This document shows, piece by piece, positions 13,105-64,000 of a stretch of 64,000 nucleotides of DNA. Location: the NCBI GenBank assembly GCA_016722375.1, contig JADKJG010000004.1:66867-130866 (forward strand), given 5' to 3'. The DNA comes from Bacteroidota bacterium (GTDB lineage: Bacteria; Bacteroidota; Bacteroidia; Chitinophagales; LD1). The stretch's first letter is position 1. The number at the start of each line of letters is the position of its first letter. Position numbers and translations under genes: made by a program. The notes under the pieces were generated by a model. The model searched no databases, was not told where the DNA came from, and saw only the letters and a program-made list of their open reading frames with translations.

Positions 13105-13224
13105 AGGCGGCGAAAATAGCAATTGTTCAAATTGAGAATTGCGATAACAATTAGCTTGCATTATCATTACCTTTGTGGACTTTCTTTTTACCTTAAAGAT
13201 GGGAAATTTTAAACGTATTATTTC

Positions 13225-14559
13225 ATGATTAAAATATCTATACTGGTATGTTTTCTGCTTGTCTGCTCGGGGCTATCAGCTCAAAATCAAACCGACTCGC
13301 TGAGCAAGGATGTGGCGGATTTAAAGAAGAAAGTTACCGCCCTCGACATTCTCAACAAGTTTAATCTCTGGGGATATGTTCAGATGCAATATCAGCATGC
13401 GGATACGGCAGGAGCAAAGACATATTCGGGCGGCGATTTCCCTGTGGCATCGTCTGACCGCTTTCGGATAAGGAGAGGACGAGTGAAACTAGAGTTTAAT
13501 CATGCTGATAAAAAGGGACAGAGTCTCTTATATACCGCTGTTCAAGTAAATTTTTCCGAGGCAGGATTTAATCTTGTTGAATATTTCGGTAGGGTTTATG
13601 ATCCGTTCATTCACTGGTTTTCCCTGACCGGAGGCATGATGAACCGTCCGTTTGGATATGAAATCATCTATTCATCGCGCATACGTGAAACACCCGATCG
13701 AGCCAGGATGTCTCAGACACTTTTTCCTCAGGAACGCGATTTGGGCTTTATGGCTACGATTGAACCACCCAAAACGAGTAAATGGGGTTTCTTCAAAATA
13801 AACGCTGGGCTTTATAATGGCACCGGACTTGGTTTTAATGAAATAGATAAGGGTAAAGACTTTATCGGACAGGTGGTTTTAAATAAATTGTTTTTGAACG
13901 ATCACTTGAAACTCTCTGGCGGGGCTTCATATTATAACGGACGGGTTCTTCAAAGTACTCCGGTGTATTATTCTTTGGAGAATACAGCCGGTAGTGGCAA
14001 TCCACCTCGATATACGGCTCATGAGGATTCTACCGGTGTGGGAAAGCGATTTTTCAAGCGGAAATATGTTGGCTTTGATTTGCAGGTTAGCGGGATATAT
14101 AAATGGGGAAGCACAACACTTCGTGGGGAATATATTTTTGGCAAGCAGCCCGGTACGGCATTTGGCAGCGGCACTCCTACCGTTCTCGGTAATGATATTT
14201 ATAATCGGAAATTTCGTGGAGCTTATGCCTACTTTGTGCAGGCGATTCATGATGCAAGGCATTCTATGTGGCACGAGCTGGTGGTGAAGTATGATTTTTT
14301 CGATCCGAACACTCAATTGGCAGGACAGAAACTAAATTCGATTAGTGATTCTAAAGTAAGCGCGGCTGATGTAAAATATCACACGGTGGGCTTGGGTTAT
14401 GTGTTCCGCCCATTGGACTTTTTCAAGTTGATGGTGTATTACGATTGGGTGATTAATGAGTCAACAGGAATTACCGATATAAGCCGTAATTTGAAGGATA
14501 ATATCTTAACGGTGAGGACTCAATTTGAATTGGATGCTAAGTGGTTTAGAAAGAAGTAA
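13225..14559 (+). CDS. outer-membrane beta-barrel porin-like protein
   Basis: Signal peptide, alternating beta-strand pattern and a C-terminal aromatic residue context. Assignment to the porin O/P-like family is tentative. Confidence 0.5.
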   Translation: MIKISILVCFLLVCSGLSAQNQTDSLSKDVADLKKKVTALDILNKFNLWGYVQMQYQHADTAGAKTYSGGDFPVASSDRFRIRRGRVKLEFNHADKKGQSLLYTAVQVNFSEAGFNLVEYFGRVYDPFIHWFSLTGGMMNRPFGYEIIYSSRIRETPDRARMSQTLFPQERDLGFMATIEPPKTSKWGFFKINAGLYNGTGLGFNEIDKGKDFIGQVVLNKLFLNDHLKLSGGASYYNGRVLQSTPVYYSLENTAGSGNPPRYTAHEDSTGVGKRFFKRKYVGFDLQVSGIYKWGSTTLRGEYIFGKQPGTAFGSGTPTVLGNDIYNRKFRGAYAYFVQAIHDARHSMWHELVVKYDFFDPNTQLAGQKLNSISDSKVSAADVKYHTVGLGYVFRPLDFFKLMVYYDWVINESTGITDISRNLKDNILTVRTQFELDAKWFRKK

Positions 14560-14621
14560 AGAGCGTTAGCGTTAGGCCTTTATTCTTCTGCCATGCTTAG
14601 TATTTACCTGTCAATTTAATA

Positions 14622-15017
14622 TTGATTGTATTTTTGGCGTCTATGTTTAGGATATGTTCGGCGAATAAATGGGTGATTATTGGTGCCTGCCTATTTCTGT
14701 TTACCTCTCTTTTCAGTCAGGAAGATAATTTTGAATGGATTCGGAAGATCAATGGGGTGAAAGGAAAGGTCACCATGCTTGAATTTGAACAAACATGGAT
14801 TATTATTCCAGATGAAAACCCAAACGGAAGATATTTTTCTAATCAACTTCCCGATGAATATAAGAAGGAAGGATTGAAGGTTTCGTTTTGTGGAATGGTA
14901 GGGAAAATCCCACCTAATGTACGTTTGTTAGCGACCCCTTTGAAGCTGAGTTGTATTTGTATCAGCAAGAAGGAAAAGAAGAAATTTGGATTGAATAGTC
15001 GGAAGTATAAATTTTAA
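14622..15017 (+). CDS. hypothetical small exported protein
   Basis: 131-aa ORF with an N-terminal hydrophobic segment. The start is uncertain. Confidence 0.4.
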   Translation: MIVFLASMFRICSANKWVIIGACLFLFTSLFSQEDNFEWIRKINGVKGKVTMLEFEQTWIIIPDENPNGRYFSNQLPDEYKKEGLKVSFCGMVGKIPPNVRLLATPLKLSCICISKKEKKKFGLNSRKYKF

Positions 15018-15027
15018 CCAATGAAAT

Positions 15028-15936
15028 ATGTCAGTAATCATTAACGAACTTTCAAAAATTTACGGAACCCAACGCGCAGTGGACAATATCTCCTTTGAAG
15101 CCAAGAAGGGCGAAGTATTAGGTTTTCTCGGACCGAACGGTGCGGGGAAAAGCACGACAATGAAAATGATCACTTGTTTTGTGCCGCAGACATCAGGCAC
15201 AGTCAGCGTCTGTGGACATGATACCTCCTTCGAGCCTTTAGAAGTAACAAAGAAGATTGGTTACCTGCCCGAAAACAATCCGCTCTACTACGATATGTAT
15301 GTGCGTGAATATCTTGAGTTCATGGGTGGGCTTCATAAGATGGGCAGCAAAATACAGACACGCATTGATGAGATGATTGAGGTCACCGGATTGACAGCGG
15401 AACGAAAAAAGAAAGTGGGGCAATTGTCCAAAGGCTATAAACAAAGAGTGGGGCTGGCGCAGGCCATGCTTCACGATCCGGAGGTTCTTATTCTCGATGA
15501 ACCTACTTCCGGTCTTGATCCGAATCAGTTGCTCGAAATCAGGTCGCTGATAAAACAACTGGGGCAGAACAAGACGGTCATTTTCTCTTCTCATATCATG
15601 CAGGAGGTACAGGCAATCGCCGACCGGGTGATTATTATCAGCAAGGGAAAGATTGTCGCAGATGATTTAACCAGTAACCTTCAGAGCCGACTGCGCAACG
15701 AAACAATTGTTACGGTTGAATTCAAACAGCCTGTTGACAAAGCAATGTTGGGCATGATAAAGGGCGTCAAGTCCCTAACAAAATCAAACGATGGAAGATG
15801 GAATCTTGTTTCCTCGGGGAAAGAAGATGTCCGAGAAAGCGTTTTCAATTTTGCTAAAGAAAAAAATCTGACCTTATTGCACTTGAACAAAGAAGAATTT
15901 TCTCTGGAGGATGTGTTTAAAGAATTGACGCAGTAG
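15028..15936 (+). CDS. gldA: ABC transporter ATP-binding protein, GldA-like
   Basis: Walker A GPNGAGKST, signature LSKGYKQR and Walker B LILDEPT. The overall layout resembles the gliding-motility ABC ATPase. Confidence 0.6.
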   Translation: MSVIINELSKIYGTQRAVDNISFEAKKGEVLGFLGPNGAGKSTTMKMITCFVPQTSGTVSVCGHDTSFEPLEVTKKIGYLPENNPLYYDMYVREYLEFMGGLHKMGSKIQTRIDEMIEVTGLTAERKKKVGQLSKGYKQRVGLAQAMLHDPEVLILDEPTSGLDPNQLLEIRSLIKQLGQNKTVIFSSHIMQEVQAIADRVIIISKGKIVADDLTSNLQSRLRNETIVTVEFKQPVDKAMLGMIKGVKSLTKSNDGRWNLVSSGKEDVRESVFNFAKEKNLTLLHLNKEEFSLEDVFKELTQ

Positions 15937-16004
15937 ATACCGGTCGGCATATTCAATTACTTAGCTTCGTTTAGCAGTTTTCTCTATTCATAATTTAAAG
16001 CATT

Positions 16005-17465
16005 TTGAGAAACATTAGTGTTGGGTGGTGGTTAGTCATCGCAATTTCTTGTTTATACTGGCTCCCTTTTCTATTGGCAAAAGGCATGTTTTTAGATGGA
16101 GTGTGCAATGCGCTCTATGCGGTGAACCTTGCAGAAGGCACTGCGTCGTTCTGGGCGCCTAAATCCAACTATATAGGCAATCCCTCAGCATGGGGTTCGG
16201 CTCCGCTAAGTATCTATATCTTATCCGTGCTTTATAAATGTTTTGGCAATTATTTTTTTATTGAAAAGATATACTCTCTGATTTGCGGCTTCATACAAAT
16301 GGCCTTAATCGCGTGGGCATGGAAGCTCTGTTTCGATAAGAACGATGAGCGCGGAAAATATGGATGGTTTCCTTGTTTGCTTTGGCTCGCTTCTCCTTTG
16401 ACCGGCTGGTGCTATTCCAATAATCTGATGGAAAACTCCATGTCCATTTTCACCACCTCTTCCATCGTGGTCTGGTTACTGTATCTGCGAAATCAGCAAA
16501 TACAATACGCCGTTGCCGGAGGGATCTTGATTTTTCTTGCTCTATTATCAAAAGGCCCCGTAGGCCTTTTCCCCCTAGCGGCGCCTTTGGTGTTTATGTT
16601 AATGAACAAAAATATTATCCGACAAAGATTTTTCTACTTCACTTTCGTTCAAGCCTTCGTATTCTTTTTGGTCTTTGTGGTGGTGTTTTCAATGGAGGCT
16701 CCGCAAACTTTTTTACATCAATATTTAGACGTGCAATTAAGGCCGGCCTTGAATCATCAAAACGGAGGAATTTCTTTTGAAATCATCTTGCAACTTCTAT
16801 TGGCTTTGCTTCCAATATTCGGGGCAGTAATTATCGTGGTTTTATACACCGCGATTAAAAAGGATGATAGCCTGCTGTCTCGAAACGACAAGAACCTAAT
16901 CGGTCTTTCCTTTTTGTTGATAGGCCTAACCGCTTCTATACCTATCATGATGAGTACGAAGCAAAGCAAATTCTATCTGCTGCCTTCTCTGAGTATTTTT
17001 TCTTTAGGGTTTTCACTGCTTCTGCTTCCTGCGTTAAAAAAATCAATGGACTTATTTGACAGGTATCCTCTTAGGTATAAAATACTAAGCGCCACAAAAT
17101 TTCTATCTGCTAGCATCATCATATTGTGTATTGTTCTTTGCATTAACAACCGAGGGATTTATTCAAGAGACAAGGCGCTATTAAATGACCTAGCGGAGAT
17201 GCAAACTTTAACCGGCGATGGTGCTATTCTGCGAGGACCGTGGGAATTAAACAGCGAATGGCATCTCTTTTCCTATTTATCTCGTCTTTATAAGATCAAG
17301 ATATGTATGCCAGATTCGGAAATAGAAACCAACTATTATATTACTTACTCCGGAAAATCAGATAAGGTGCCCTCACAAGACTTTATAAAAATTTATAGCG
17401 GAAACAAATTTGATTTGTATCAATTAGCAAGTGCTGATAATTTTCACAAAAGGAAAATAAATTAA
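16005..17465 (+). CDS. polytopic membrane glycosyltransferase (GT39/ArnT-like)
   Basis: 486 aa with more than 10 predicted TM helices. Non-ATG (TTG) start. Confidence 0.5.
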   Translation: MRNISVGWWLVIAISCLYWLPFLLAKGMFLDGVCNALYAVNLAEGTASFWAPKSNYIGNPSAWGSAPLSIYILSVLYKCFGNYFFIEKIYSLICGFIQMALIAWAWKLCFDKNDERGKYGWFPCLLWLASPLTGWCYSNNLMENSMSIFTTSSIVVWLLYLRNQQIQYAVAGGILIFLALLSKGPVGLFPLAAPLVFMLMNKNIIRQRFFYFTFVQAFVFFLVFVVVFSMEAPQTFLHQYLDVQLRPALNHQNGGISFEIILQLLLALLPIFGAVIIVVLYTAIKKDDSLLSRNDKNLIGLSFLLIGLTASIPIMMSTKQSKFYLLPSLSIFSLGFSLLLLPALKKSMDLFDRYPLRYKILSATKFLSASIIILCIVLCINNRGIYSRDKALLNDLAEMQTLTGDGAILRGPWELNSEWHLFSYLSRLYKIKICMPDSEIETNYYITYSGKSDKVPSQDFIKIYSGNKFDLYQLASADNFHKRKIN

Positions 17466-17581
17466 CCGGATATAAACAACGCGAGGCACCTAGATAAACT
17501 CAATATTATGGAGAACCTTTATGATTGCTAATTTCATTCACGCTATTACATGGGAAAAATAGCTTTATGTTTATCATAACT

Positions 17582-20500
17582 ATGCGTATCAAAGCAAAGC
17601 TGTTTTATTGTTTTCTAATCGGATTCGCTTCGTTGATTTTACCCAACACCGTCTCTGCACAAGTAAATTGCAACAACGTTGACTTTGAAAGCGGCACTTT
17701 TGCAAACTGGACAGGATATACAGGCGTTTGTTGTCCCATTACCGCCGATACAGTCGGTTTTGTTTCTACCCGCCACACCATTATGACCGGGGCAGGTAAT
17801 GATCCGGTCATCCCGCAGATTCCCGTCGTATCGCCTTATGGAGGCACCTATTCTGTTCGCCTCGGAAATTCTTCTATAGGAGCACAAGCCGAGCGTTTAA
17901 CTTATACCCTTAACGTAACTGCTGCCAATCCCAATTTCACCTATCAATATGCGGTAATACTCGAAGACCCCAGCCACACTCCGGCCCAGCAACCGCGCTT
18001 TCAGGTAAATGTGATGGATACAGATGGCGCTACCATTCCCTGTGGCTTTTATAACGTAGTTGCCAGTGGCAACATCCCCGGCTTTCAACGCACGGGGAGC
18101 ATAGTTTGGAAGAACTGGTCATTTGTTGCGGTGGATTTGTCCTCATATATAGGACAAAATATCACGGTGGAGTTTTCTACCGGCGATTGTGATTTGGGTG
18201 GCCATTACGGCTATGCATATATTGATGCCTCTTGTGCGCCCCTCCGAATATTTACCAACTATTGCCCCGGCGACCCTATTGCCGACCTCACCGCTCCACC
18301 TGGTTTTCAGTTTTATCAATGGTCCACCGGAGAATCTGCTCAAGCCATTACGGTCACTAATCCGGTTCCCGGCGACTCTATTACTGTGGTATGTGTTCCT
18401 TTCCAAGGGGTTACTTGTACCTCTACTTTGAAATACATATTCCTTCAAAACCCACCGGTCGAGGCCAACTACAGCATCAACACTGTCTGCGGAAACAATC
18501 AGGTGGTGTTCTCTGATTCCTCTACCATATCGGCCACCGGTGCGCAGGTCACCGGCTGGAAATGGATTATTAATGATTCGATTATCTCCACCCAGCCAGC
18601 GGCTACCTTCTCTTTTCCCGCTGCAGGCAGCTATGATGTCACCTTAATTGCCGAATCCTCGTATGGTTGTCCCGATACGCTTCATAAACAAGTATTAATT
18701 CCGCAGGGATTGCTCGTTACGGCTAACATCCGCTCCGGCAGCGGAGGCTTTGCTTTGCAATGTATCGGCGATAACAATGCGGTGCTCAAGGCTAATGCAA
18801 ACCTGGGTATCCCTCCTTATTCCTATCAATGGAATACCATACCGGTCTCGACAGGCGATTCCATATCAAATCTTTCTGCGGGCACTTATACAGTGAGTGT
18901 CACCGATTCGACAGGCTGCATAGCCACGGCCAGTGCGGTCATCAGCGCGCCACCGCCTGCGGTCATGGATCCGGTTATAAAAAACGTATCCTGCTATAAC
19001 GGAAACAATGGACAGATTACCGCGCTCATGAGCGGCGGCACACCGCCCTACACCTATTCCTGGAATACAAATCCTCCCCAATCGTTTCAAACTATTTCCA
19101 ATCTCGGTGCCGGCAGCTATACGGTAACTATTACCGACAACAACCAGTGCACAACCCTTGTTTCATCTGTGGTCAGCGAACCTTCCCAATTGAATATCTC
19201 CATCACCTCCAAAACCGACAACGTCTGCTTTGGCGGTCATACCGGTAGGGCAACTGCCTCTGCCTCAGGCGGCAATGCACCTTATATATATTCATGGAAT
19301 ACAAACCCCATCCAAAATGATACGGCGGCTTCAAACCTATCCGCCGGAAATTATGTGGTGACCGCCACCGACGACAGCCTTTGCACGGCCACCACAACGG
19401 TTGTTATTAATGAACCCACCAAACTTTCTTCTACCTCCACCGTTGATAATGTCTTGTGCCATGACAGCGCACAAGGCTCTATTGCGCTAATCGTATCTAA
19501 CGGAACAGCGCCCTACACCTATTCCTGGCAGCCATCTGTTAGCACCACCGCCGCCGCCCAGAATCTAAAAATGGGTACTTATGATGTAACTATCACCGAC
19601 AATAACGGATGCACCCTATCCAATTCATTTATCGTCATTGAACCACCTGCATTAAACATTCAAACGCAATCAACGAATGTTCTTTGTTCCGGAAACCTCG
19701 ACGGCACAATCACCGCCACCGGTGTGGGAGGAATTCCAACCTATACCTATTCTCTACTTCAGAATGGGAATACTATATCTACCAACACCACCGGATCCTT
19801 CACCGGCCTCGGTGTAGGAAACTATACCATCATTTTTTCTGACGGAAATAATTGTGCGGTATCTCAGCAACTGACCGTCAACGAGCCGCCGCTAATCAGC
19901 ATTCAAAGTATCGTGGCCGATTCTGTTAACTGTTATGGCTACAACGACGGCGCTATCTCCATAGTTGCTACCGGCGGAGTGCCACCATTCGAATATGTGC
20001 TCAATAACAATGCCCCTTCTTCTTCCGGAAATTTCAACAATCTACCTCCCGGAAATTATTCCATCACCATCAACGACGCAGGAGGATGTTCTTTGCAAAC
20101 AGCCACCAACATCAACGAACCCCCACCGCATATCCTTTCCATCATTCCCGATTCTATCCAAATGAATTTGGGTGAAAGCCGTGCGGTCCAAATCATCAGC
20201 AACTTTGCGCCGAACGTTATCTATTCCTGGTCGCCCGAAAGCGGCACCGATTGCCCTACCTGCCCCAACGCCAATGTCGGCACCTATAACAGCCTCGAAT
20301 ATTCTATTCGCGCAGTGGCGCACCCACATCAACTGGATTGTGAGGCTACAATTAAACTACCGGTAACGGTCACGGCCAACTACGATATTTTCATTCCCAA
20401 TGTGTTCACTCCAAACAATGATGGAGTAAACGATTTTTTTGAATACTTCGGAAACAAATCCGGTGTAAAATATTTGGATGTAGAAGTCTTCAACCGTACC

Positions 20501-37358: not shown

Positions 37359-38396
37359 CTACGGTGTTTTCTCATGTAGTTCAAAGACTTCCTTATCAAA
37401 TAGGGCATGAGCTAAATCCAAGCGATTATGTTCTACCGGTATGATGATGGTAGTAAATTCGTTATCGTCGCCATAATAAAAAGTCATTTTTATTGAAAAA
37501 TCTTTAATGTCAGCTGAGGTGAAGTGCTCATCTGCTTTCATCAAGATAATGGTTTTGCCATTATCTATGGCCGTGGTAGCACCTTCAACAGCTTCAAATA
37601 TCATATCGGGGGTAGCGTGCTGTATTCTATTAGCCACTTTTGAGCGTTTTAACTTAACCATGATCTGGTTAATCTTGCTCTGCCCATCAGAATACATTAA
37701 AATACCCAATAGGTTTTCCTCTTGCATCTGTTGAATGGGTTCGGAAGTGGCATCCAACGAGGTAAAACCCACAAAATATTTGTCTTTTACGTTGGGAATA
37801 ACCACTTTTAATTCTCCGTAAGAGCAACTAAATATTTCCTCACCAGTCGTCAGGCTAAACCGTTTGAAATAATCTTCTTCCTGCCCAACACCTTCATGAA
37901 TTGCCAACAAGGTATTGTCAGTAAATTGCAAATCAGTGGCTGCAAATTTTGCTTCCCAATGCAACGGCTCCGCAGCGTTCACGCTCTTCGCTGAAATTTC
38001 GTAAACCTTGTGCTTGTTGATGGAATCAGCAAAACACAATTCCGTTTTTTTTATCTTCAGCAACAGAGGGATTTTAATCCTGCGGTTGTAAACGTTTATT
38101 ACCTCATAGTTAGTGTTGCTCTGTTGAATGCATACCCTTCCGTTTTCATCAAATACACGAACCGAAGATGACCCTGTGTCTATATATGTTTCTTTTCCAG
38201 AAATAGCCGCGGTATCGCTTTGGGGTTTTTTGCTTGAATTTCTACATGATGAAACAAAGAATAAGGTGATAAGAAACAGAGAACAGAACACCAGAAATAT
38301 GGTCTTATGCTGAACATGGCAATTCGGATTTCCCCCTTTAAGTAAGGAGAATTTTCGGTCTTTTGATTTAGGATTGCTGATTTTGTCAAAATTCAT
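37359..38396 (-). CDS. hypothetical membrane-anchored protein
   Basis: 345-aa ORF with one TM helix. It overlaps the folD stop by 11 nt. Confidence 0.5.
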
Positions 38397-39260
38397 GTTT
38401 AGCGGCTTTTAACGTGTTGAGTAATAAAGATACTACGGTCATCGGACCTACCCCACCGGGTACGGGTGATATAACCCGGCATTTAAGCGCAACCTCATCA
38501 AAACAAACATCTCCTTTCAATCTCCATCCGTTTTTTGCCGTGGGATCGCCCACCCGAGTAGTTCCTACGTCAATTACTACTGCTCCTTCCTTTACCATAT
38601 CGGCAGTTAGGAAGCCAGGTTTACCGAGGGCTGCAATAATAATATCTGCCTGAACCGTAACCTCTTTGATATTCTTGGTCTTAGAGTGACAGATAGTAAC
38701 TGTGGCATTTCCCGTCTTACCCGAACCACTCATCAAGATACTCATTGGCCTGCCTACAATATTACTTCTGCCAATAATCACACAATGCTTTCCAGAAGTT
38801 TCGATATCATAGCGTTCAAGCAATTTGGTAATACCAAGAGGAGTGGCAGACACATAAGCAGGCATCCCCAGAGTGACTTTACCCACATTCTCAGGATGAA
38901 AGCCATCTACATCCTTGCCAGGATGAATACTCATAATAATTTGGTCCGTATCAATATGTTTCGGTAGCGGTAGTTGAACAATGAACCCGTCAATATCCGG
39001 ATGGTCATTTAGCTTTCTGACTTCTTCAAGTAAGGATGGTTGTGATATAGATTTATCAAAGCGAAGTAGGGTGGATTTAAATCCAACTTCTTCGCAGGAT
39101 TTCATTTTTTTTCGACGTAGGTTAGGCTGCCTCCGTCATCACCAACCAGAATGGTAGCCAGATGTGGTACTTTGCCTCCGTTTGCTTTTATCTTTTGAAC
39201 TTCTTGGCGAATTTCAGCTTTAATTTCTTCCGAAATCTTTTTTCCGTTCAACAATAACAT
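38386..39260 (-). CDS. folD: bifunctional methylenetetrahydrofolate dehydrogenase/cyclohydrolase, interrupted by a 1-nt frameshift in an A8 tract (as assembled)
   Basis: The 52-codon N-terminal piece (ATG 39260, [12 protein letters not shown] through to [10 protein letters not shown]) ends in TGA. The remainder (ORF 38386-39105, MKSCEEVGF through to PGGVGPMT) is in the +1 frame. One extra A would give [12 protein letters not shown]. Confidence 0.85.
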
Positions 39261-47616: not shown

Positions 47617-47721
47617 TTAAGTGCTACCCTTACTCTTCTCATGTTGTTTAGGTTTTAATGGTTAAAAAATAATGGTGCATTGATTTTCGGAAATAAAAGG
47701 ACCGGAAGGGGCATTTGCATA

Positions 47722-47971
47722 GCCTGTTTTCCTATAGGAAAAATACTTTTTCCTATTTGCTTGACTCGTTTTCCTATAGGGAAAACCCCTTTTCCCTATT
47801 AGCTTGCCCTGTTTTCCTATAGGAAAAACACTTTTTCTAATTAGCTTGTCCTGATTCCTATAGGAAAAAAGCTTTTTCCAATTAGCTTGTCCTCTTTTCC
47901 TATAGGAAAAACACTTTTTCTAATTAGCTTGTCCTGATTCCTATAGGGAAAACACTTTTTCCAATTAGCTT
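47722..47971. repeat. six-copy tandem array with 42-bp period, containing a perfect 16-bp palindrome TTTTCCTATAGGAAAA
   Basis: Palindromes at 47727, 47769, 47812, 47853, 47895 and 47937. Units 3+4 and 5+6 form a near-identical 83-84-bp higher-order repeat. Confidence 0.9.
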
Positions 47972-48157: not shown

Positions 48158-48529
48158 TTGCGCCTGTTTGCCGAAGATGAAACCTGTCGAAACTATCGCT
48201 ATTCTACCTATGTTACCAATCTCGAGTTTGCTCCCGCAGAAGTGTGGCGGATGTACCGTGGCAGAGGGGATGCGGAAAACAGAATTAAGGAACTGAAACA
48301 AGACTTTGGTTTTGACAGCTTTAACTTAAATGGATTTTACCCAACCGAAGCCGCACTGACTTTTGCCATGATTGCTTATAATCTAATGTCGCTTTTTAGA
48401 ACCTTTGCCATTGGAGCATATTTTGAAAAGCAAAATGGTAAACTCGACCTAAATAAAAAACGAAGAAAATGGTTTTCCTGTTTATGGAATTATCCACTTA
48501 AAATTCCTTTTCATTTTTCTAATCCGTAA
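48158..48529 (+). mobile_element. C-terminal fragment of a DDE (IS4/IS1380-like) transposase; IS remnant
   Basis: YRGRGDAENRIKELKQDFGFDSF matches the Y-2-R-3-E-6-K signature. Only about 120 aa remain and no inverted repeats were identified. Confidence 0.65.
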
Positions 48530-51653: not shown

Positions 51654-52142
51654 TTGCGTCCAAAAAGTATGGACGCCATCGAATTCATCCGCCGTTATCC
51701 GGTGTATCTAGCCCAACTCAAAAGAGTGGTGAAGCCGGAATACCACTTTATCATAACAACCCTTAGAGACCTCGACCCGCACGACATAGTAGAGCCACAG
51801 CACTACTTTAACAGCGAGGCAGAGGCAATCGGCCTAGTCTTCACCCTATTCCAGAAGAAATTAAAATCTCTACCTGACACTGGCAAAGATTCAAAAGAAG
51901 AACTGCAAACTAAGGTTGACGCCGCCAAGAACCTCCTCGCTGAGAATGGCATCCAATCAGTTGGGCTGTGGTGTATTGAAGATATAATAGACAAGGCTAA
52001 CGAGTTGAAAATTCGTTGTAGCAAGCAAGATGCTCACGCTATATTGACCCGGATAGAGAAAGAATTCGATGCGGAGTTCGGAATAAACTGGCAAACGATT
52101 GAGAACCATATCCTGGAGTATTTCAAAAACAAGAAAGCATGA
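51654..52142 (+). CDS. hypothetical protein (island gene 1)
   Basis: ORF of 162 aa; the ATG at 51669 is the more likely start. Its stop overlaps the next start (ATGA at 52139). Confidence 0.5.
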   Translation: MRPKSMDAIEFIRRYPVYLAQLKRVVKPEYHFIITTLRDLDPHDIVEPQHYFNSEAEAIGLVFTLFQKKLKSLPDTGKDSKEELQTKVDAAKNLLAENGIQSVGLWCIEDIIDKANELKIRCSKQDAHAILTRIEKEFDAEFGINWQTIENHILEYFKNKKA

Positions 52143-52690
52143 GGGCGGTCACAAATCAGATATTGCTGTTGCCGGTTTTGTCCGGTCAACGGTTTTGTGT
52201 TGTATCTGCCTGGCGCGGTGAACAGTCTGATGAAGTGAACGGCACCCAGCACGAAGACCTAAGAATCCGGCTTAAGGATCTTCACCTGAGTATAATTGAA
52301 CTCAGGTGTACCTATTTTTATCTGAATCATGGGCAACCAATGGGTGCAGAAGAGAAATCCTTCTTCGTGCCGAAGGCAGACCTATATGAGATAATGCTAA
52401 TCGCAGAGAAGTACCAGCAAACTTCCATCCTTTATAAAAGAGAAGGCAGGATAGAAATAGTTCAAGTGAAAGTAGGCCGGGTGTTGCATACCATCCCATT
52501 AAGGGAAGAGTATCAGACTGAAAATTTCAGGACGGCGTATATACATTATGTACTGAGCAGAAATCAAAATGTAGGTGAGATTACAGACATCAACATTGCT
52601 AAACTGCACCTGCCTACACGTCTGGAATCTCTGCTGCGTCTGAAGAATAAAGAAGATTTGTCCGCAACAGAGTGGATGGAATTGTTTTGA
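52139..52690 (+). CDS. hypothetical protein (island gene 2)
   Basis: 183-aa ORF, translationally coupled to the gene upstream. Confidence 0.5.
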   Translation: MRAVTNQILLLPVLSGQRFCVVSAWRGEQSDEVNGTQHEDLRIRLKDLHLSIIELRCTYFYLNHGQPMGAEEKSFFVPKADLYEIMLIAEKYQQTSILYKREGRIEIVQVKVGRVLHTIPLREEYQTENFRTAYIHYVLSRNQNVGEITDINIAKLHLPTRLESLLRLKNKEDLSATEWMELF

Positions 52691-55275: not shown

Positions 55276-56403
55276 ATGTCTTTTCCTAAGTTTGGGTCTA
55301 TGACTTTAGAGAGATTAGCTTATACCCTGGCAAAAACATTAACGGAACCGGTGCGAGAATATTCTGATCTTGTATATACAGGTTTCATGGATTCTGTCGA
55401 AGTGCTCCGGGACGAATATCCGATAGATGAAGAATACAAAAAGGAGTTAATAAAGTTCGTCAAAGACAAATACACCTTGGTAGAAAAACATTGGCAGTAC
55501 GGCTCTTTTGACACTGCCCGGTTCCTGAAAAAATACATCTTAAAGAGCTTCCATAGTTTAGGCCCTGATGGCGGAACATATTTTGAACATCCCCAGATTA
55601 GGGGCTTGATGAAGCTCTATGAAAATAAATTCGATGTCAATTATAAATTTGATTACAAGCCGGGGAAGAATTTCGGAAAAGTGCTTGTTGTAGCAACAGC
55701 GAGGAAAGGCAAAAAAGAGAAAGAAATTGCTTTTGCCTTTGAATACCTAAAGTCGGTCATGACAAATGCAGCATGGGTGCTGGCATATTTGAAATTCAGG
55801 GAGAATTTCAAGAACGAACTCGCTGAAGATAGCTCAAGTTCTATTGAGCCAGAAAACACGAAGCATGAATACAAGCCGGAAAATAGTTCTAATAGAATGA
55901 AGTGGCGTGTTGACCGAAAACATCTTGAATCCATTTTTGGAAAATTGGCAAGGCAAACGCTAACAGAAGATGGCAGATTAACGCTTGTTGCGAAACCGAC
56001 AGAAATACAAAAGTTAATTGAACGAAATTTTGAATTCTCCGACACGAAACAAAAAGTGAATTATCCGGACAAGAATAGTCGCCTGATTTACAACGGGCAG
56101 ATGGTATCTTTTCTCAGGTTATTATTTTATCTGTCTGAGAAGAAAATGAAAGGAAAAGACAAGCCGGCTTTCTCACCACCGGATTCCTGGATAATCAATT
56201 TTGTGTGCAGAAACTTCATGCGATATAACAAACAGGGAGTGGAAGAAGAGATTCCGGTTAAGTCGGTCAAAGATGAATGGCTAAGAATCAGACGCAAATT
56301 TGATAAAGCGGGAACTGAGAAGCAATATGACACGCTGCGCGCCGGAAACACAAATCACAACCTGCTGCATATTCTCGAACCGGAACTTTCCATTTTTGTA
56401 TAA
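55276..56403 (+). CDS. hypothetical protein (375 aa)
   Basis: Long ORF with no recognised motif. Confidence 0.5.
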   Translation: MSFPKFGSMTLERLAYTLAKTLTEPVREYSDLVYTGFMDSVEVLRDEYPIDEEYKKELIKFVKDKYTLVEKHWQYGSFDTARFLKKYILKSFHSLGPDGGTYFEHPQIRGLMKLYENKFDVNYKFDYKPGKNFGKVLVVATARKGKKEKEIAFAFEYLKSVMTNAAWVLAYLKFRENFKNELAEDSSSSIEPENTKHEYKPENSSNRMKWRVDRKHLESIFGKLARQTLTEDGRLTLVAKPTEIQKLIERNFEFSDTKQKVNYPDKNSRLIYNGQMVSFLRLLFYLSEKKMKGKDKPAFSPPDSWIINFVCRNFMRYNKQGVEEEIPVKSVKDEWLRIRRKFDKAGTEKQYDTLRAGNTNHNLLHILEPELSIFV

Positions 56404-56554: not shown

Positions 56555-57469
56555 ATGTCTAGCGAAAAAACAGAAATCACAGAGTATGGACTCGTAAACG
56601 TGGACGAGTTGACAAGAGCGAAAGACCATGAAACTACATTTCCCTACACGGACACAACCGAGTTCGAGGGCACCAATGATTCCTACAAAAAATTCAAGCG
56701 AATTTTTCCGGTAGTGTATGTTATTATGAATATCAACGACGTACCGGTAAAGGTCGTGGTTGATGGATGGAAGTACGTAGTGTTTGCTCGTGCAAATGGT
56801 ATATCCGAGATATACGCCTGCGAGCTAACCGTCGAGAATCAGGAGGATTTGATTGCAATTATGATTCAGTTGCAGCGCACAAACCATCAATCCTACTTAG
56901 CGCTGTATTACATGATTGAGGCGCTTTGGGAAAAGCACTACCTTGGTAAGGGATACCGCAGTGACCTTCAGGAGAATGAGTTGGACAATCCGGTTGAAGG
57001 AGCAGATGGCAAGAAAGAAACAATCTACGACCGCATAGGAAGGGAGCTGAATCTTAAACCTCATAAGGTCAAATATCTCCGCAAGATTGGGCAGGTCAAC
57101 AAGCGTCAGTTTATTCAAATGGATAGCGAGCGGCCCAGTTTGTATAAACTGTATAAAGCATGCGTCAGTGAGCAGAGCGGTGATGCTCCTGCATTACCTG
57201 CCTATAAAACGCCGGTTTATCACTCGAACGCAACTCCGGTGCCTGTCTTCACTACTCCGACACCCGAAGCGAATGTTGTAACCCACACGTCAAACAGCAC
57301 CGGAACAAATAAAGTCCATGCGGATTCAGATCAGGCGAGCAGCACCAAGCGGGAAACGCCTATTGGAGGAATAATCAAACAGGACGGCGATTGCATTACC
57401 GTTCAGGCGATATGTCAGTGCTGCAGCAACCCAACTTTTTTAATCATTTCCAAAAGTCAACTACTATGA
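56555..57469 (+). CDS. ParB N-terminal-domain-like (ParB/Srx fold) protein
   Basis: VVVDGWKYVVFARANGISEIYACEL followed by IQLQRTNHQS fits the ParB-like nuclease-domain pattern. It has an S/T/P-rich tail ending in a Cys cluster. Confidence 0.5.
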   Translation: MSSEKTEITEYGLVNVDELTRAKDHETTFPYTDTTEFEGTNDSYKKFKRIFPVVYVIMNINDVPVKVVVDGWKYVVFARANGISEIYACELTVENQEDLIAIMIQLQRTNHQSYLALYYMIEALWEKHYLGKGYRSDLQENELDNPVEGADGKKETIYDRIGRELNLKPHKVKYLRKIGQVNKRQFIQMDSERPSLYKLYKACVSEQSGDAPALPAYKTPVYHSNATPVPVFTTPTPEANVVTHTSNSTGTNKVHADSDQASSTKRETPIGGIIKQDGDCITVQAICQCCSNPTFLIISKSQLL

Positions 57470-59529
57470 GTACACCTAATAACAAACCACTGAGGAAACG
57501 AATTATCGTCGTTTCACTTTTCTCTGGGATGGATTTGTTCTTATTGGGCATGGTCAAAGCAGGGATGCAGCCGGGATACGCTGTAGAAAAGAACTTCTAC
57601 GCGTGCCTGATGCACAAAGGCGTATTCAAGCACCCCGACGGCACACCGGTAATGGAACCTTTTGTTATAATAACTAAGGAGGAGTACACATTCAAGAAGA
57701 ACCACCGCGACAAGAACGGTAAGAAGGATATGGAAGATGAGGTGGGCCAGATCAATGGTGTTTATTACCGGACGAAGCTCATCCAGGAAATAAATGGAGG
57801 AACTATCCGGGCGGCCCTGGAGAAGAGGTATGGGAAGGACATCATCATCGTTGTCATAGGCGGCCCCCCTTGTCAGGATTTCACCAACCTTAACTCCGCC
57901 AAAAATACCGGCGAAGACAGCCGTAACCAATTAGTATTTGAGTTCCTGCGGATTGTGGAAGAGTTGAAGCCGGATGTAGCCCTGATGGAACAGGTTCCGG
58001 ACTTTGGTCCCAGTGGAAAGTTCGAAGAGATATATAATTCCTTTCTTGAAGATACGTTCAAGCTACCCTATGAAATCATGGACTGCGAGATGTGTTCAAT
58101 CCACTATCACGGTAGACAGCTTCGGTGGCGAAGGGTATTCCAGTTCGTTCATAAGAGTTACAACACCAAACCTGTATTCCCGAAACCAGAATTAAACAAT
58201 ACGGTATTGGTTAAGGACTTTCTGGACATTGACTACTTTGTGATGGGAGGTTACGACCGGGTGATGCGGCATCCAAACCAATACATGCTGACAGTGACAT
58301 CCGGGAATCCTACGGACTTCTTTAAAGGTGAAATAAAACGACCACCAACTATAGATGAACTCCTGGATTGCTTTGATGTCCCACGGGGTGGTTATCCAAT
58401 ACCTGAAGGCATACCCTTTCAGCAGAAACGGAAAGCAATAGGTAATGGTGTATGTGTCAGTGTGGCCTATGCTTTGGGTAAGACGGTTATCAGTGAGGTA
58501 TTGCGTCTAAAGCCAGATGGTGACGGTTATTTTATTCCTATCGATTCTTCGCCAGATAATCCAGACCTGATGCTGGTGGAGGTGCCACCAACGAATCCTG
58601 CACCGGATGGAGATACTGCTGTCGCTGATCCACTCGATGCCGCACCGGCAACCGACCCAACTCCTATTGAAGAGGAAGTCAAGGAAGAAACTACTCCTCC
58701 CACGGTGCTTCGTAACATCATAACGACAGACGCGAATCACAATAAGATTGAACCACCAAAAATCATCAGCAGCACGTCGCTAGAACAGATGCAGTTTCAG
58801 TCACTCAACTTTGATGGCCTTTGGAACGAATTCTTCGGTTATCCATCCATAAACTTCCATTGCCTTATTCACGGACTCTCCGGTCACGGTAAGAGCACCT
58901 TTGCAATTCAGTTCGCCAAATATCTCGCTGACTATTTCGGACGCGTCATTTATATCAGCGGCGAGGAAGGATTCTCCATGACGTTCAAAGACAAGTTTGT
59001 GAATAACGGCGCCGGGTCGGAGGCGCTTGACGTAGCCGACCTACGGAGCTATGATGATATAATCCAGCACGTGCCACGTTCCGCATACAACTTCATTTTC
59101 ATCGATAGCCTTAATACGATGAAGATTGACGTGAACAAACTAAAGGAGTTACGCACCATGTTTGAAAATACCGCATGGGTCACCATTTCACAATCCACTA
59201 AGGGCGGAGAGATGAGGGGTTCCTACGAAATCGTACACGACTCGGATGTAGCTGTCAAAGTGACTAATGGAATGGCGGTTACTACCAAGAACCGGTTCAA
59301 ACCTCTGGGCTCCAATTTTAGGGTGTTCAAACCGAATAACGATTCACAAAGTATCTTGGAAAGATACCACGACAATCCAGACGAGTCGCCTGGTACTCAA
59401 CCGTCATCCGACAATGGAGTCAGAATATCGAATCTGAAAATTCAGTTAGACGACGCTCTGGCCGCCGAAAACTTTGAACTCGCAGCAAAGCTGAGGGATG
59501 AGATAAATCGCATAGAGGAGCAGAAATAA
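57466..59529 (+). CDS. DNA (cytosine-5) methyltransferase fused to a RecA/KaiC-like P-loop ATPase and a C-terminal UVR motif
   Basis: C5-MTase motifs I (LFSGMD), IV (GGPPCQDFT), VI (MEQVPDF), VIII (QLRWRR) and X (IGNGV). A Pro/Asp-rich linker follows. Then Walker A GLSGHGKST and Walker B FIFIDSL. The sequence ends with ENFELAAKLRDEINRIEE. ATG 57466 overlaps the upstream stop (ATGA). Confidence 0.75.
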   Translation: MSTPNNKPLRKRIIVVSLFSGMDLFLLGMVKAGMQPGYAVEKNFYACLMHKGVFKHPDGTPVMEPFVIITKEEYTFKKNHRDKNGKKDMEDEVGQINGVYYRTKLIQEINGGTIRAALEKRYGKDIIIVVIGGPPCQDFTNLNSAKNTGEDSRNQLVFEFLRIVEELKPDVALMEQVPDFGPSGKFEEIYNSFLEDTFKLPYEIMDCEMCSIHYHGRQLRWRRVFQFVHKSYNTKPVFPKPELNNTVLVKDFLDIDYFVMGGYDRVMRHPNQYMLTVTSGNPTDFFKGEIKRPPTIDELLDCFDVPRGGYPIPEGIPFQQKRKAIGNGVCVSVAYALGKTVISEVLRLKPDGDGYFIPIDSSPDNPDLMLVEVPPTNPAPDGDTAVADPLDAAPATDPTPIEEEVKEETTPPTVLRNIITTDANHNKIEPPKIISSTSLEQMQFQSLNFDGLWNEFFGYPSINFHCLIHGLSGHGKSTFAIQFAKYLADYFGRVIYISGEEGFSMTFKDKFVNNGAGSEALDVADLRSYDDIIQHVPRSAYNFIFIDSLNTMKIDVNKLKELRTMFENTAWVTISQSTKGGEMRGSYEIVHDSDVAVKVTNGMAVTTKNRFKPLGSNFRVFKPNNDSQSILERYHDNPDESPGTQPSSDNGVRISNLKIQLDDALAAENFELAAKLRDEINRIEEQK

Positions 59530-59567: not shown

Positions 59568-61058
59568 TTAAGCAAGTGTTTTGAGGAACCGGTATATCAC
59601 CACCATCGCCCAGGTATCCAGTCCACAGTATTCGACGAGGTTCTTTCTTTCGGTTGACCAGTCTTTATCAGGTTCGGCCATCATCTTCATGAACAAGACA
59701 CTGGCATCATCGCCGTTATTCACAGTAAGATTCTTATAACTGAGCTTAGGTGCGACCACCGGCAACACCTGCTTGATGCTATACGAGCCGCTGAATTTGT
59801 AATGATAGAACCACTTCTTGTAGAAAGGGAGGGCAAGGTCAATCAAGCGTTCAATTACCGCCTCAATTTGTGATTCATACTTTGGAAACAAAATTGACAG
59901 GTGCCGCAACTTGGAGCGCTCAAAGCCGACGTTCCAAACCAGAATTGTCCCATCTGTGCCTAAGTCGCGAAGCAGAGTAATCAAAAAGTCTTCCCTGAAA
60001 TCTTTACCGGGTTCGGCAAGGTAAGCGCGGCTGACCGGTTCATAGTTTTTCGATTCAATGGTGTGAAGTGAATACTGAAAAGGCGTCTGTTCGTAAGGAT
60101 TTGTACGCTGGAATTTCGGGACGGCGAACCGGATGGTCTCAAAATCAAGGAAGTGAATCGGGTAAACAATCTTGTCAAGAAACTCTCTCAGTGGTTCCTT
60201 GTTCAGGTATATCCCGCGATTGATATGCGCTTCAACCACATAGTTATATGGCGGCTTAAACTGCTTCCATTCCTTTACATCAGAAATCTTACGGACACCT
60301 GAGTGGTACTGCCGGAATCGTTCTTCCGTTTTTCTATAATAACCAAGATCCAGAATGGATTCATCCGGTACATCCTTCCAGCAATGTTCTTTGAAATCAC
60401 AAGTCCAAGGGCTGGTACATTGTTTGCCTATGAGGGTTTCAGGGCAGTTACTACCGATCACTACGTTTTTTAGCTCGGCCACCATCTCGCTTATCTCGTC
60501 CTGCAAGGCCACCGCAAGTGGGTATACCGATTCAATCGTGAACAGCTTCTCAACTTCTATTTCACCGTGCCGTTCATATTCATTATTGAGGTGGATGATG
60601 GAAATATCCTTCAATTCAATCCCGCAATTAGTCATGACCCAAAATTGCAGTGCAGCGTCTGTGATATTGATGTCATGAACTCTAGTGGATGATTTTACCT
60701 CGTAGGCATACCATCCGTCTTCTTTCTTAACCAGTATATCCAGCGCCGCTAGAACGCCGTCGTACTGAAAAGCCGCCTCGTAAATCACGGGTGCACCTTC
60801 CGCCACTAACTTCACCGTCATTTCTATGGAAGGCTGATAGTTGTAGGGTGTGGCCGGACTTGCATCAACGCCACCGGGGAATAATTGATGCGCGAGTTCA
60901 CCGACCTGATGTCCCTGATCGAAAATGAACTGCTTGCTTTCAGAAATAGCGGGAATTAGGTCCCTTCTGTTCTTGTAAAGCCATAGGCTCTTTTTACAAA
61001 TACTACCGCGGATAAAGGTGGATTTAGAGAGGATGTGGTTCGTTTTATTGTGATTCAT
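59568..61058 (-). CDS. DUF2779-type protein: Cas4/RecB-like PD-(D/E)XK nuclease with Cys cluster plus DEDD-like exonuclease half
   Basis: N-terminus LSKSTFIRGSICKKSLWL. Nuclease motif AYEVKSS. Cys cluster C-TSPWTC-DFKEHC. The second half has HFLDFETI and YCGLDTWAMV. Confidence 0.6.
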   Translation of the reverse strand: MNHNKTNHILSKSTFIRGSICKKSLWLYKNRRDLIPAISESKQFIFDQGHQVGELAHQLFPGGVDASPATPYNYQPSIEMTVKLVAEGAPVIYEAAFQYDGVLAALDILVKKEDGWYAYEVKSSTRVHDINITDAALQFWVMTNCGIELKDISIIHLNNEYERHGEIEVEKLFTIESVYPLAVALQDEISEMVAELKNVVIGSNCPETLIGKQCTSPWTCDFKEHCWKDVPDESILDLGYYRKTEERFRQYHSGVRKISDVKEWKQFKPPYNYVVEAHINRGIYLNKEPLREFLDKIVYPIHFLDFETIRFAVPKFQRTNPYEQTPFQYSLHTIESKNYEPVSRAYLAEPGKDFREDFLITLLRDLGTDGTILVWNVGFERSKLRHLSILFPKYESQIEAVIERLIDLALPFYKKWFYHYKFSGSYSIKQVLPVVAPKLSYKNLTVNNGDDASVLFMKMMAEPDKDWSTERKNLVEYCGLDTWAMVVIYRFLKTLA

Positions 61059-63442: not shown

Positions 63443-64000
63443 CTAAGCCCAATTTACGGAAATAGTCGGTGGTGGTATCGACAGTGTGTCAAAAGCCTCT
63501 ATGAAAATCTTGTTAGCTAGCGCCGCGTCATCTGGTAAGCACATTATTGAATCATGAATCGTCACAAATCTGATTCCCTTCTCTATGAGCCGAGGCGCCA
63601 CAACCTGATACATCAGCGCCGCTTCGCTCCGCTGCATGAGGCAGGCGACAAGTGTATAGGCATTGTTGCTTTTCGCATACCGGAACTTCTTTCCGGGAGG
63701 CCGGATTATATCTCTTAACTTGGGAAGTAACATTTCATCCGCATGTTTTATATCCTGAAACATCTTGTGAACGCTGGAAAATGCGTGCCGAAACATCTCG
63801 CGGAACCTGCTATTTTCTCCGTAAACGCGGGTTTTAGAGAATAATACAGAAGAGAAAAACAACTTCTTTATCTTATCTCTCGCTTCCTTGTCTTTGGTAT
63901 CTAAGCCCATACCCCCCATAATGAACTCATATAACCTGCCTTCCACACACAATCTTCTATATAGTAGAAAGTCCGCGTTCCGGGTGTATGGTTCAGCGAT
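63443..64000 (-). CDS. C-terminal part of a divergent family-A polymerase-like protein (5' end outside window)
   Basis: The frame is open to the window edge. Motif-B-like RDKIKKLFFSSVLF, MQRSEAA (compare PMQGTAAD) and motif-C FVTIHDS (compare VHDE in Pol I and IHDS in T7 RNAP). The tail is SVNWA. Confidence 0.55.
   Translation of the reverse strand: MAEPYTRNADFLLYRRLCVEGRLYEFIMGGMGLDTKDKEARDKIKKLFFSSVLFSKTRVYGENSRFREMFRHAFSSVHKMFQDIKHADEMLLPKLRDIIRPPGKKFRYAKSNNAYTLVACLMQRSEAALMYQVVAPRLIEKGIRFVTIHDSIMCLPDDAALANKIFIEAFDTLSIPPPTISVNWA

Follow-up and report, generated by a model that had tools for sequence, protein, structure and literature searches.

Motor-assisted methylation of injected DNA, as a means of anti-restriction, has been proposed for the DarB-type methylase-helicase dyad (PMC5512222). 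The plasmid methylases M.EcoGIX and M.BceJIII modify single-stranded DNA (ssDNA) in cooperation with DNA polymerase I and shield incoming DNA (PMC7736820). The DNA dioxygenase (5mYOX) of a phage needs its cognate ParB homologue in order to act on double-stranded DNA, and mutating the nucleoside triphosphate (NTP)-binding residues of that homologue leaves its activator role intact (PMC13229309). Fusions of ParB with methylases are enriched in prophages (PMC12704722). The gene considered here comes from a 64,000-nucleotide stretch of a Bacteroidota genome (Chitinophagales, LD1; GenBank assembly GCA_016722375.1, contig JADKJG010000004.1, positions 66,867 to 130,866 of the forward strand). This whole stretch is called the window, and positions in it are counted from its first letter. 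The gene fuses a C5 DNA methyltransferase to an ATPase that most resembles the helicase domain of RadA/Sms, lies directly behind a small partner gene, and belongs to a family that recurs in mobile islands of Bacteroidota. We describe it as a candidate DNA-modification module of such an island.

These described systems each share part of this layout. Like the fusion, DarB of P1 carries a methylase N-terminal to an ATP-driven motor in one polypeptide and resides on a mobile element. However, DarB-type proteins are very large and combine an EcoKI/TaqI-like N6-adenine methylase with a superfamily 2 (SF2) ATPase of the SWI2/SNF2 type, whereas the protein described here joins a C5 methylase to a minimal RecA-fold domain of RadA/superfamily 4 (SF4) type, adds a UVR tail and has a ParB-like partner gene. 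M.EcoGIX and M.BceJIII are likewise orphan methylases of mobile elements; they act in connection with a DNA-processing enzyme and single-stranded intermediates, and serve anti-restriction while the element becomes established. But they make N6-methyladenine, bind the DNA polymerase I of the host without a covalent link and reside on conjugative plasmids, whereas the flanks of the fusion loci show no conjugation genes. The ParB-associated modifying enzymes of phages share the genetic coupling of a ParB-type protein to an enzyme that modifies DNA bases; here, in contrast, the partner is a separate and highly divergent protein lacking a Pfam ParBc match, and a motor has been added to the enzyme, a C5 methylase.

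The fusion is a single open reading frame (ORF) of 687 amino acids (aa) on the forward strand, 57466-59529, with zero internal stops between the ATG at 57466 and the stop codon at 59527-59529. This ATG fits the N-terminus of the family in alignment, and an alternative start upstream (TTG 57391) does not. The start codon (57466-57468) overlaps, as ATGA, the TGA (57467-57469) of the upstream ORF of 304 aa (56555-57469). A sequence-only reading of this DNA had proposed the uninterrupted frame, the ATGA overlap and a set of diagnostic motifs, and all of these are borne out: GGPPCQDF, GNGV, GLSGHGKST, FIFIDSL, STKGGEMRGSYEIVHDSD and ENFELAAKLRDEINRIEE are each present in the translation. Profiles run against each segment agree, with PF00145 and PF02151 matching above cut-off and phrog_116 and phrog_6891 matching the methylase and the ATPase, respectively.

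The methylase domain scores 66 bits against PF00145 (cut-off 22; E 4e-18) and matches phrog_116 'DNA methyltransferase' over aa 5-349 (E 1e-29), and its closest solved relatives in the PDB are the bacterial C5 methylases 3g7u and M.HhaI. Motif conservation was scored on an alignment of 27 full-length family members. Motif IV (GGPPCQ, aa 132-137) has invariant G132, G133, P134 and C136, the last being the catalytic Cys; equally invariant are M174 and E175 of motif VI (MEQV), Q218, R220 and R222 of motif VIII, N327 and V329 of motif X (GNGV) and the acidic residue E41 of motif II. The catalytic motifs look intact, and on this alignment an active-looking enzyme is predicted. Motif I is a variant, LFSGMDLF in place of FxGxGG with the last two Gly replaced by Asp and Leu, and F19 and D23 within it are invariant. 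Because this motif reads FSGMD and not FxGxGG, binding of S-adenosylmethionine (SAM) is graded as likely, and no higher.

The domain behind the linker matches phrog_6891 'ATPase' over aa 431-605 (E 1e-28), and the Pfam P-loop families AAA_24 and KaiC reach it at sub-threshold scores only. It had been read as RecA/KaiC-like; the RecA superfamily stands, but the likeness to KaiC yields to RadA/Sms, of the SF4 helicase type, which fits best. In an NCBIfam scan of 55 aligned members of the domain, TIGR00416 (RadA/Sms) was the commonest match, found in every member (best E 2e-13), followed by RadB (42/55) and KaiC (31/55), and the best PDB sequence for the domain profile is RadA of S. pneumoniae (5lkm). 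An AlphaFold2 (AF2) model of aa 420-687 has a mean predicted local distance difference test score (pLDDT) of 88. Its top Foldseek matches are again RadA (8rxc/5lkm, E 4e-9 to 8e-8), ahead of DnaB (4esv), G40P (3bh0), T7 gp4 (1cr1/1e0j), RecA and KaiC, and among viral predicted structures (BFVD) it falls best on DnaB-like helicases (E 1e-14) and primase-helicases. T7 gp4 is the closest structural paralogue of RadA (PMC5512693).

The motifs tell a similar story. GxxGxGKST, SxEEG, DSL, QxTK, HDxD and KNRF are invariant in the ATPase, the window protein having GLSGHGKST (Walker A), SGEEG, FIFIDSL (Walker B) and TTKNRFK. The KNRFG motif has been described as unique to RadA (PMC5512693). Here K608, N609, R610 and F611 are invariant and the fifth residue is K or E, where that of RadA is G. 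What the fusion shares with RadA/Sms is thus the Walker A and B motifs, SGEE, the H-D-x-D segment and the RadA-specific KNRF(G); what it lacks are the two flanking domains, since the methylase occupies the N-terminus, where RadA has its C4 zinc finger, and the C-terminal Lon-like P domain is missing. On sequence and model, then, the domain is most like the RadA/Sms helicase domain (SF4, DnaB-type) and not KaiC, and on present evidence it would work like a RadA/SF4 helicase core. The fusion is not, by these comparisons, a RadA orthologue, because both flanking domains are absent and its score against TIGR00416 is 26-28 bits, where the equivalog cut-off is 403.

Two further segments complete the protein. 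The linker is unconserved, and at its position long relatives hold a Cys-rich domain of ~250 aa. The C-terminal 34 residues match UVR (PF02151) with 35.4 bits (gathering score 21.5; E 8e-9) and appear in the AF2 model as two helices of pLDDT >90 behind a low-confidence, disordered stretch; about one third of the fusion clusters carry this tail. As for the Cys-rich insert, it is found in P0017 (L004, 10001-12982), P0002, P0012, P0039 and P0083, and matches the C-terminal half of phrog_2554, a family without known function, at E 6e-67, its DUF7227 matches being only weak. P0039 joins the methylase to the Cys-rich domain and has no ATPase.

The architecture had also been called unusual, and no characterised enzyme with such a domain order was found; no paper in the literature was found to describe a C5-methylase/RecA-like fusion, and no curated family either. 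It is not unique, however. A large protein search returned 34 other clusters at the 90% identity level that combine methylase and ATPase. They are 40-54% identical to the window protein and measure 640-770 aa, or 900-990 aa when the Cys-rich domain is present in the linker. Databases give them generic names ('DNA cytosine methyltransferase', 'DUF2075 domain-containing protein'), and the same domain order thus forms an unnamed family that recurs in mobile islands of Bacteroidota. The full-length fusion occurs in 4 of 185,579 GTDB species representatives, all of them metagenome-assembled genomes (MAGs) of Bacteroidota. It was not found in viral contigs in an IMG/VR scan, and phage and plasmid databases hold no fusion, solely distant ATPase-only relatives. 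The family is therefore rare and known only from uncultured Bacteroidota.

Could the fusion be an artefact, with a frameshift in sequencing or assembly joining two adjacent genes? The ORF is continuous at the window locus, and the same fusion appears in the 34 other clusters, which come from numerous assemblies and sources independent of one another and whose linkers differ in sequence and length. This recurrence removes the explanation, whose probability we regard as negligible. Beyond recurrence, a second C5-methylase lineage (P0080, P0083, P0187, P0054 and P0149) is fused to the same ATPase, with 50-58% identity in the ATPase, while its methylases align to that of the window only partially, at 22-28% identity and E 1e-4 or worse. 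Some of these second-lineage fusions contain the Cys-rich insert and others lack it. That one ATPase has been joined, in an unchanged order, to two methylase lineages with hardly any relation to each other argues more strongly than anything else for a functional link of the two domains, as opposed to chance adjacency.

The partner gene shows an equally strict linkage. Its homologue stands directly 5' of the methylase gene in 7/7 independent loci that have upstream sequence (L001, L004, L005, L007, L009, L011 and L091), at 28-42% identity, and overlaps the methylase gene by 4 nt in five loci and by 1 nt in one. It is absent from all ATPase-only loci compared. In second-lineage fusions the upstream gene encodes instead a protein of 264-269 aa (L175 and L176) that is not BLAST-similar to the window partner. 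The partner had been read as ParB-like, a likeness that holds weakly. Searches of Pfam, NCBIfam, PHROG and PADLOC gave no match, nor did PDB profiles, and the AF2 model is poor (pLDDT 59, predicted template modelling score 0.44). However, the top 24 Foldseek PDB matches of this poor model are all ParB/Spo0J/Noc, with E 3.5e-4 to 0.4 (22/24 at or below 0.034) and low TM scores of 0.16-0.38. The N-terminal extension of the L004 homologue has a weak ParB-like PHROG match (E ~1e-3). The second-lineage upstream protein has no Pfam match, and in L175 it gives weak ParB-like PHROG matches (E ~1e-3); aligned with hhalign, the two partner lineages share a weak helix-turn-helix match alone, at 24% probability.

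The ATPase is also widespread outside the fusion. A HMMER search against 1.84 billion representatives found 198 ATPase clusters with E <= 1e-30, a number that rises to 1277 when the limit is set at E <= 1e-10. The domain is C-terminal in 150/150 best relatives, as in primase-helicases. Most relatives measure 430-520 aa; a Cys4 ribbon makes up their N-terminal part and a coiled coil or Gly zipper the middle. This zinc ribbon aside, C5 methylases are the only recognisable N-terminal domains among the relatives sampled. The ATPase occurs without a methylase in ~55 Bacteroidota loci. By its distribution and gene order the ATPase domain belongs to the core genes of mobile elements in Bacteroidota, and it therefore seems to have a part in replicating or recombining the DNA of these elements.

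Some of these stand-alone genes were seen in their context. Stand-alone Zn-ribbon-ATPases are carried by integrative islets of 5-7 kb (L088, 6934-11419; L090, 6930-11410), in the order integrase, a 260-277-aa unknown, an HTH_17 excisionase-like gene, an extremely acidic 80-aa protein, the Zn-ribbon-ATPase and cargo, for example AbiEii/DUF6088; several MAGs have 2-4 copies of the ATPase gene. More distant relatives of ~210-225 aa lie directly 3' of MuA-like and MuB-like genes in Mu-like phages of Bacteroidota, namely Bacteroides phage jmh47_hp (L173, 3427-4104) and Elizabethkingia phage TCUEAP3 (L174, 4828-5454). Their annotations read 'helicase', 'ATPase' or 'ATP-dependent serine protease'.

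How might such a protein work? The domains, their intact motifs, the recurrent fusion, the strict linkage to the partner and the setting in mobile islands are observed; the mechanism that follows is inferred. The reading that we tentatively prefer, although we place it a little short of even, is a DNA-modification module of an integrase-borne Bacteroidota island, in which the partner and a methylase tethered to a motor protect or mark the DNA of the element. The small partner would be co-translated with the C5 methyltransferase, which a flexible linker ties to the C-terminal ATPase of RadA/DnaB type. The ATPase may oligomerise on ssDNA or on branched DNA, for example that arising when the element is replicated, transferred or recombined, and move along it by means of ATP, presenting DNA to the tethered methylase heads as it translocates. 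This layout would resemble that of T7 gp4, where the N-terminal primase acts on the strand that passes through the ring of the C-terminal helicase. T7 gp4-type primase-helicases (SF4) likewise have a C-terminal RecA-fold helicase-like domain, a linker and an N-terminal enzyme that acts on DNA, but that enzyme is a primase there and a methyltransferase here, where the helicase role is predicted. The partner would recruit or activate the enzyme on DNA, the UVR hairpin may serve as an optional protein-protein contact, and the outcome would be fast methylation that protects (or marks) element DNA against restriction. The precedents of DarB, M.EcoGIX/M.BceJIII and the phage ParB homologues make each of these steps plausible. 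In a more specific version that we consider doubtful, RadA/SF4-type domains would form a ring loaded by the ParB-like partner, and processive methylase heads would modify the threaded or displaced strand. If true, it would provide near-instant protective, and possibly strand-specific, 5-methylcytosine (m5C) marking in replication, transfer or integration.

Several observations weigh against a tethered-motor module of this kind. In L091 the partner precedes a stand-alone methylase of 392 aa that has no ATPase. The conserved unit is on this ground partner plus methylase, with the ATPase an addition; judged from gene content, ATPase and UVR are both optional additions to that pair. Since the pair exists without it, the motor would not be essential to methylation. 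The Lon-like P domain supplies most of the hexamer interface of RadA (PMC5512693). The fusion has no Lon_C match and ends in the disordered stretch and the UVR hairpin, so the formation of a hexameric ring by its ATPase domain is uncertain. The partner, too, departs from what a protein of ParB type should look like: the ParB arginine box (GxxR / GERRxRA) is missing, the segment reads VVDGWKYV, and only D70 and G71 in it are invariant, with no conserved Arg. The partner is probably a degenerate ParB-type DNA-binding protein, an assignment that is weak. Finally, no conjugation, relaxase, type IV secretion system or virion genes were seen in 10-kb flanks, and the defence genes carried as cargo fit a role in defence equally well.

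That role would be one of a restriction-modification (RM)- or BREX-kind system, in which the methylase marks self while ATPase and partner sense or block unmethylated invading DNA, the partner acting as an NTP-regulated nuclease of ParB type or as a recruiter. ParB-family domains can indeed be nucleases (PMC5512222), and the surroundings are suggestive: related islands carry BrxL, genes of CBASS/SMODS and SIR2 type, Ssp-like genes for phosphorothioation and an RM system of Eco57I type, the 201-aa gene near the fusion matches a PADLOC candidate, a Cas4-like nuclease adjoins the fusion in two loci, and in L007 the second gene upstream has a weak Mrr-like domain. However, no nuclease is common to all loci (the Cas4-like one is in 2/7, and neighbours other than the partner vary), the partner is devoid of the conserved Arg needed for ParB-type nuclease and NTPase activity, and PADLOC system models go unmatched beyond generic methylase matches. 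Stand-alone ATPases, moreover, occupy element-core positions, next to integrase and excisionase or MuA and MuB, and not defence operons. A defence system of this kind therefore appears improbable to us.

A different objection is that the two enzymes share a polypeptide without sharing a task, the RadA-like domain serving as replication or recombination helicase of the island and an orphan methylase being fused to it for co-expression, uncoupled from the motor. The ~55 Bacteroidota loci with the same ATPase and no methylase, in integrase-excisionase islets or after MuA/MuB, are what one would expect of such an arrangement, as are the methylases found without ATPase and the long, disordered and variable linker. 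Yet the fusion of two barely related methylase lineages in constant order would scarcely be expected unless physical coupling had been selected for. A further point against it is that C5 methylases are, zinc ribbon aside, the sole recognisable N-terminal domains among sampled relatives. Independent functions thus deserve some weight, although we think them unlikely. The coupled module remains our tentative preference.

The chromosome around the fusion is of Bacteroidota type, with sorting domains of the type IX secretion system and genes for TyrRS, Sua5, FolD and a Mur ligase up to ~47 kb, and island-like genes run from ~51.65 kb to the end of the window. The features of the fusion and of this island are listed in the table.

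Features of the fusion gene and of the surrounding island in the window
Feature	Position	Strand	Basis or remark
Fusion ORF: C5 methyltransferase, linker, RadA-like ATPase and UVR	57466..59529	+	Uninterrupted; motifs kept in the family
C5 DNA methyltransferase domain, aa 1-370	57466..58575	+	PF00145, phrog_116, PDB relatives
Pro/Asp/Thr-rich linker, aa ~371-430	58576..58755	+	Unconserved consensus and variable length in the family alignment
RadA/Sms-like RecA-fold (SF4-type) ATPase, aa ~431-625	58756..59340	+	Profiles, AF2/Foldseek, invariant motifs
UVR helical hairpin, aa 653-686	59422..59523	+	PF02151; preceded by a disordered stretch
Partner gene, 304 aa, weakly ParB-like	56555..57469	+	Stop overlaps the fusion ATG; conserved upstream of the methylase
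SAM-lyase-like ORF	52139-52690	+	PF23780, 35.7 bits (cut-off 28)
Island-associated protein, 201 aa	54401..55006	+	PADLOC candidate PDC-S57, E 6e-14
Possible third operon gene, 375 aa, function unassigned	55276..56403	+	Homologue in L011
DUF2779 and Cas4/RecB-like nuclease, convergent with the fusion	59568..61058	-	PF11074 E 3e-38; Cas_Cas4 E 1e-5
C-terminal part of a ~480-aa protein, gene runs past the window end	63443..64000	-	Frame open to the end

The mobile character of these islands shows in their neighbours. A tyrosine integrase adjoins the module in L005, L007, L009 and L175, and in L007 an excisionase-like gene sits between fusion and integrase. HipA is among the cargo genes. Homologues of the 201-aa protein are found in most related islands (L001, L004, L007, L041 and L175). 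The 375-aa gene has a homologue in the same position in L011 alone (35% identity); its product has no family match in Pfam, NCBIfam, PHROG or PADLOC, the large protein search returned just the protein itself, and a hidden Markov model built from it and its L011 homologue gave no match in the other loci. The DUF2779/Cas4-like nuclease has a homologue (65% identity) in only one other fusion locus, L004, and is therefore island cargo and not a fixed partner. The fragment at the window end resembles the C-terminus of a 482-aa protein of L007 (11069-12517; E 7e-14), and that L007 protein has homologues over its full length in L175 (3983-5446, 487 aa) and L005 (4267-5598, 443 aa). This island protein has no Pfam or other family match and no PDB match; by eye only, segments of it (DIKNSQP..., K..IK.K.F and TIHD) resemble motifs A, B and C of family-A polymerases. 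Boundaries of the island are less apparent: the window holds no tRNA genes, no att-like repeats were found in 46-64 kb, and GC content does not mark the island. A scan for sigma-70 promoters and terminators was uninformative, with fewer sites than in shuffled controls.

Known systems were also considered. Membership of Druantia, DISARM or BREX was rejected, as their other genes are absent and PADLOC reports only DruM, DrmMII and MTase_II. As for type II restriction-modification, no cognate endonuclease gene is kept beside the methylase across the seven loci.

A few other observations were made along the way. The SAM-lyase-like ORF is a SAM-degrading gene of anti-restriction type, 5 kb upstream of the SAM-dependent methylase and on the same island. 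In L011, a Chitinophagales MAG, the region directly 3' of the fusion (12515-17728) encodes a DUF4007 protein, a 1072-aa AAA ATPase and a PAPS-reductase-like protein, a set that we take to resemble an Ssp-type phosphorothioation system. Upstream of the island, 47695-47971 holds 6-7 tandem copies of a unit that recurs every 41-43 nt and contains the palindrome TTTTCCTATAGGAAAA; the array lies where an HPPD-like gene is separated from a DDE transposase fragment. The latter is a 123-aa ORF (48158-48529, +) that matches only the C-terminal part of DDE transposase models (PF13701, PF01609) and is probably a transposase remnant. The FolD-like ORF (38386-39105, -) aligns to the Pfam profile of the catalytic domain only from position 50 onward, so that ~50 N-terminal residues are seemingly missing, a truncation that could mean a frameshift or an unusual start.

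What would a module of this kind add? Known methylase-motor devices, which serve phages and plasmids in anti-restriction, pair adenine methylases with SF2 motors, and this family instead joins C5 methylases of two lineages to a minimal RecA-fold domain of RadA/DnaB type. If the motor feeds DNA to the methylase, m5C marking that is fast or favours one strand would be reached by a new route, and the fusion would be a small candidate tool with which to methylate DNA in a targeted or processive way. Partnerships of ParB-type proteins with DNA-modifying enzymes are an emerging theme, to which the family contributes a further case, and it gives access to a RadA-like ATPase that is widespread in mobile elements of Bacteroidota and still unnamed.

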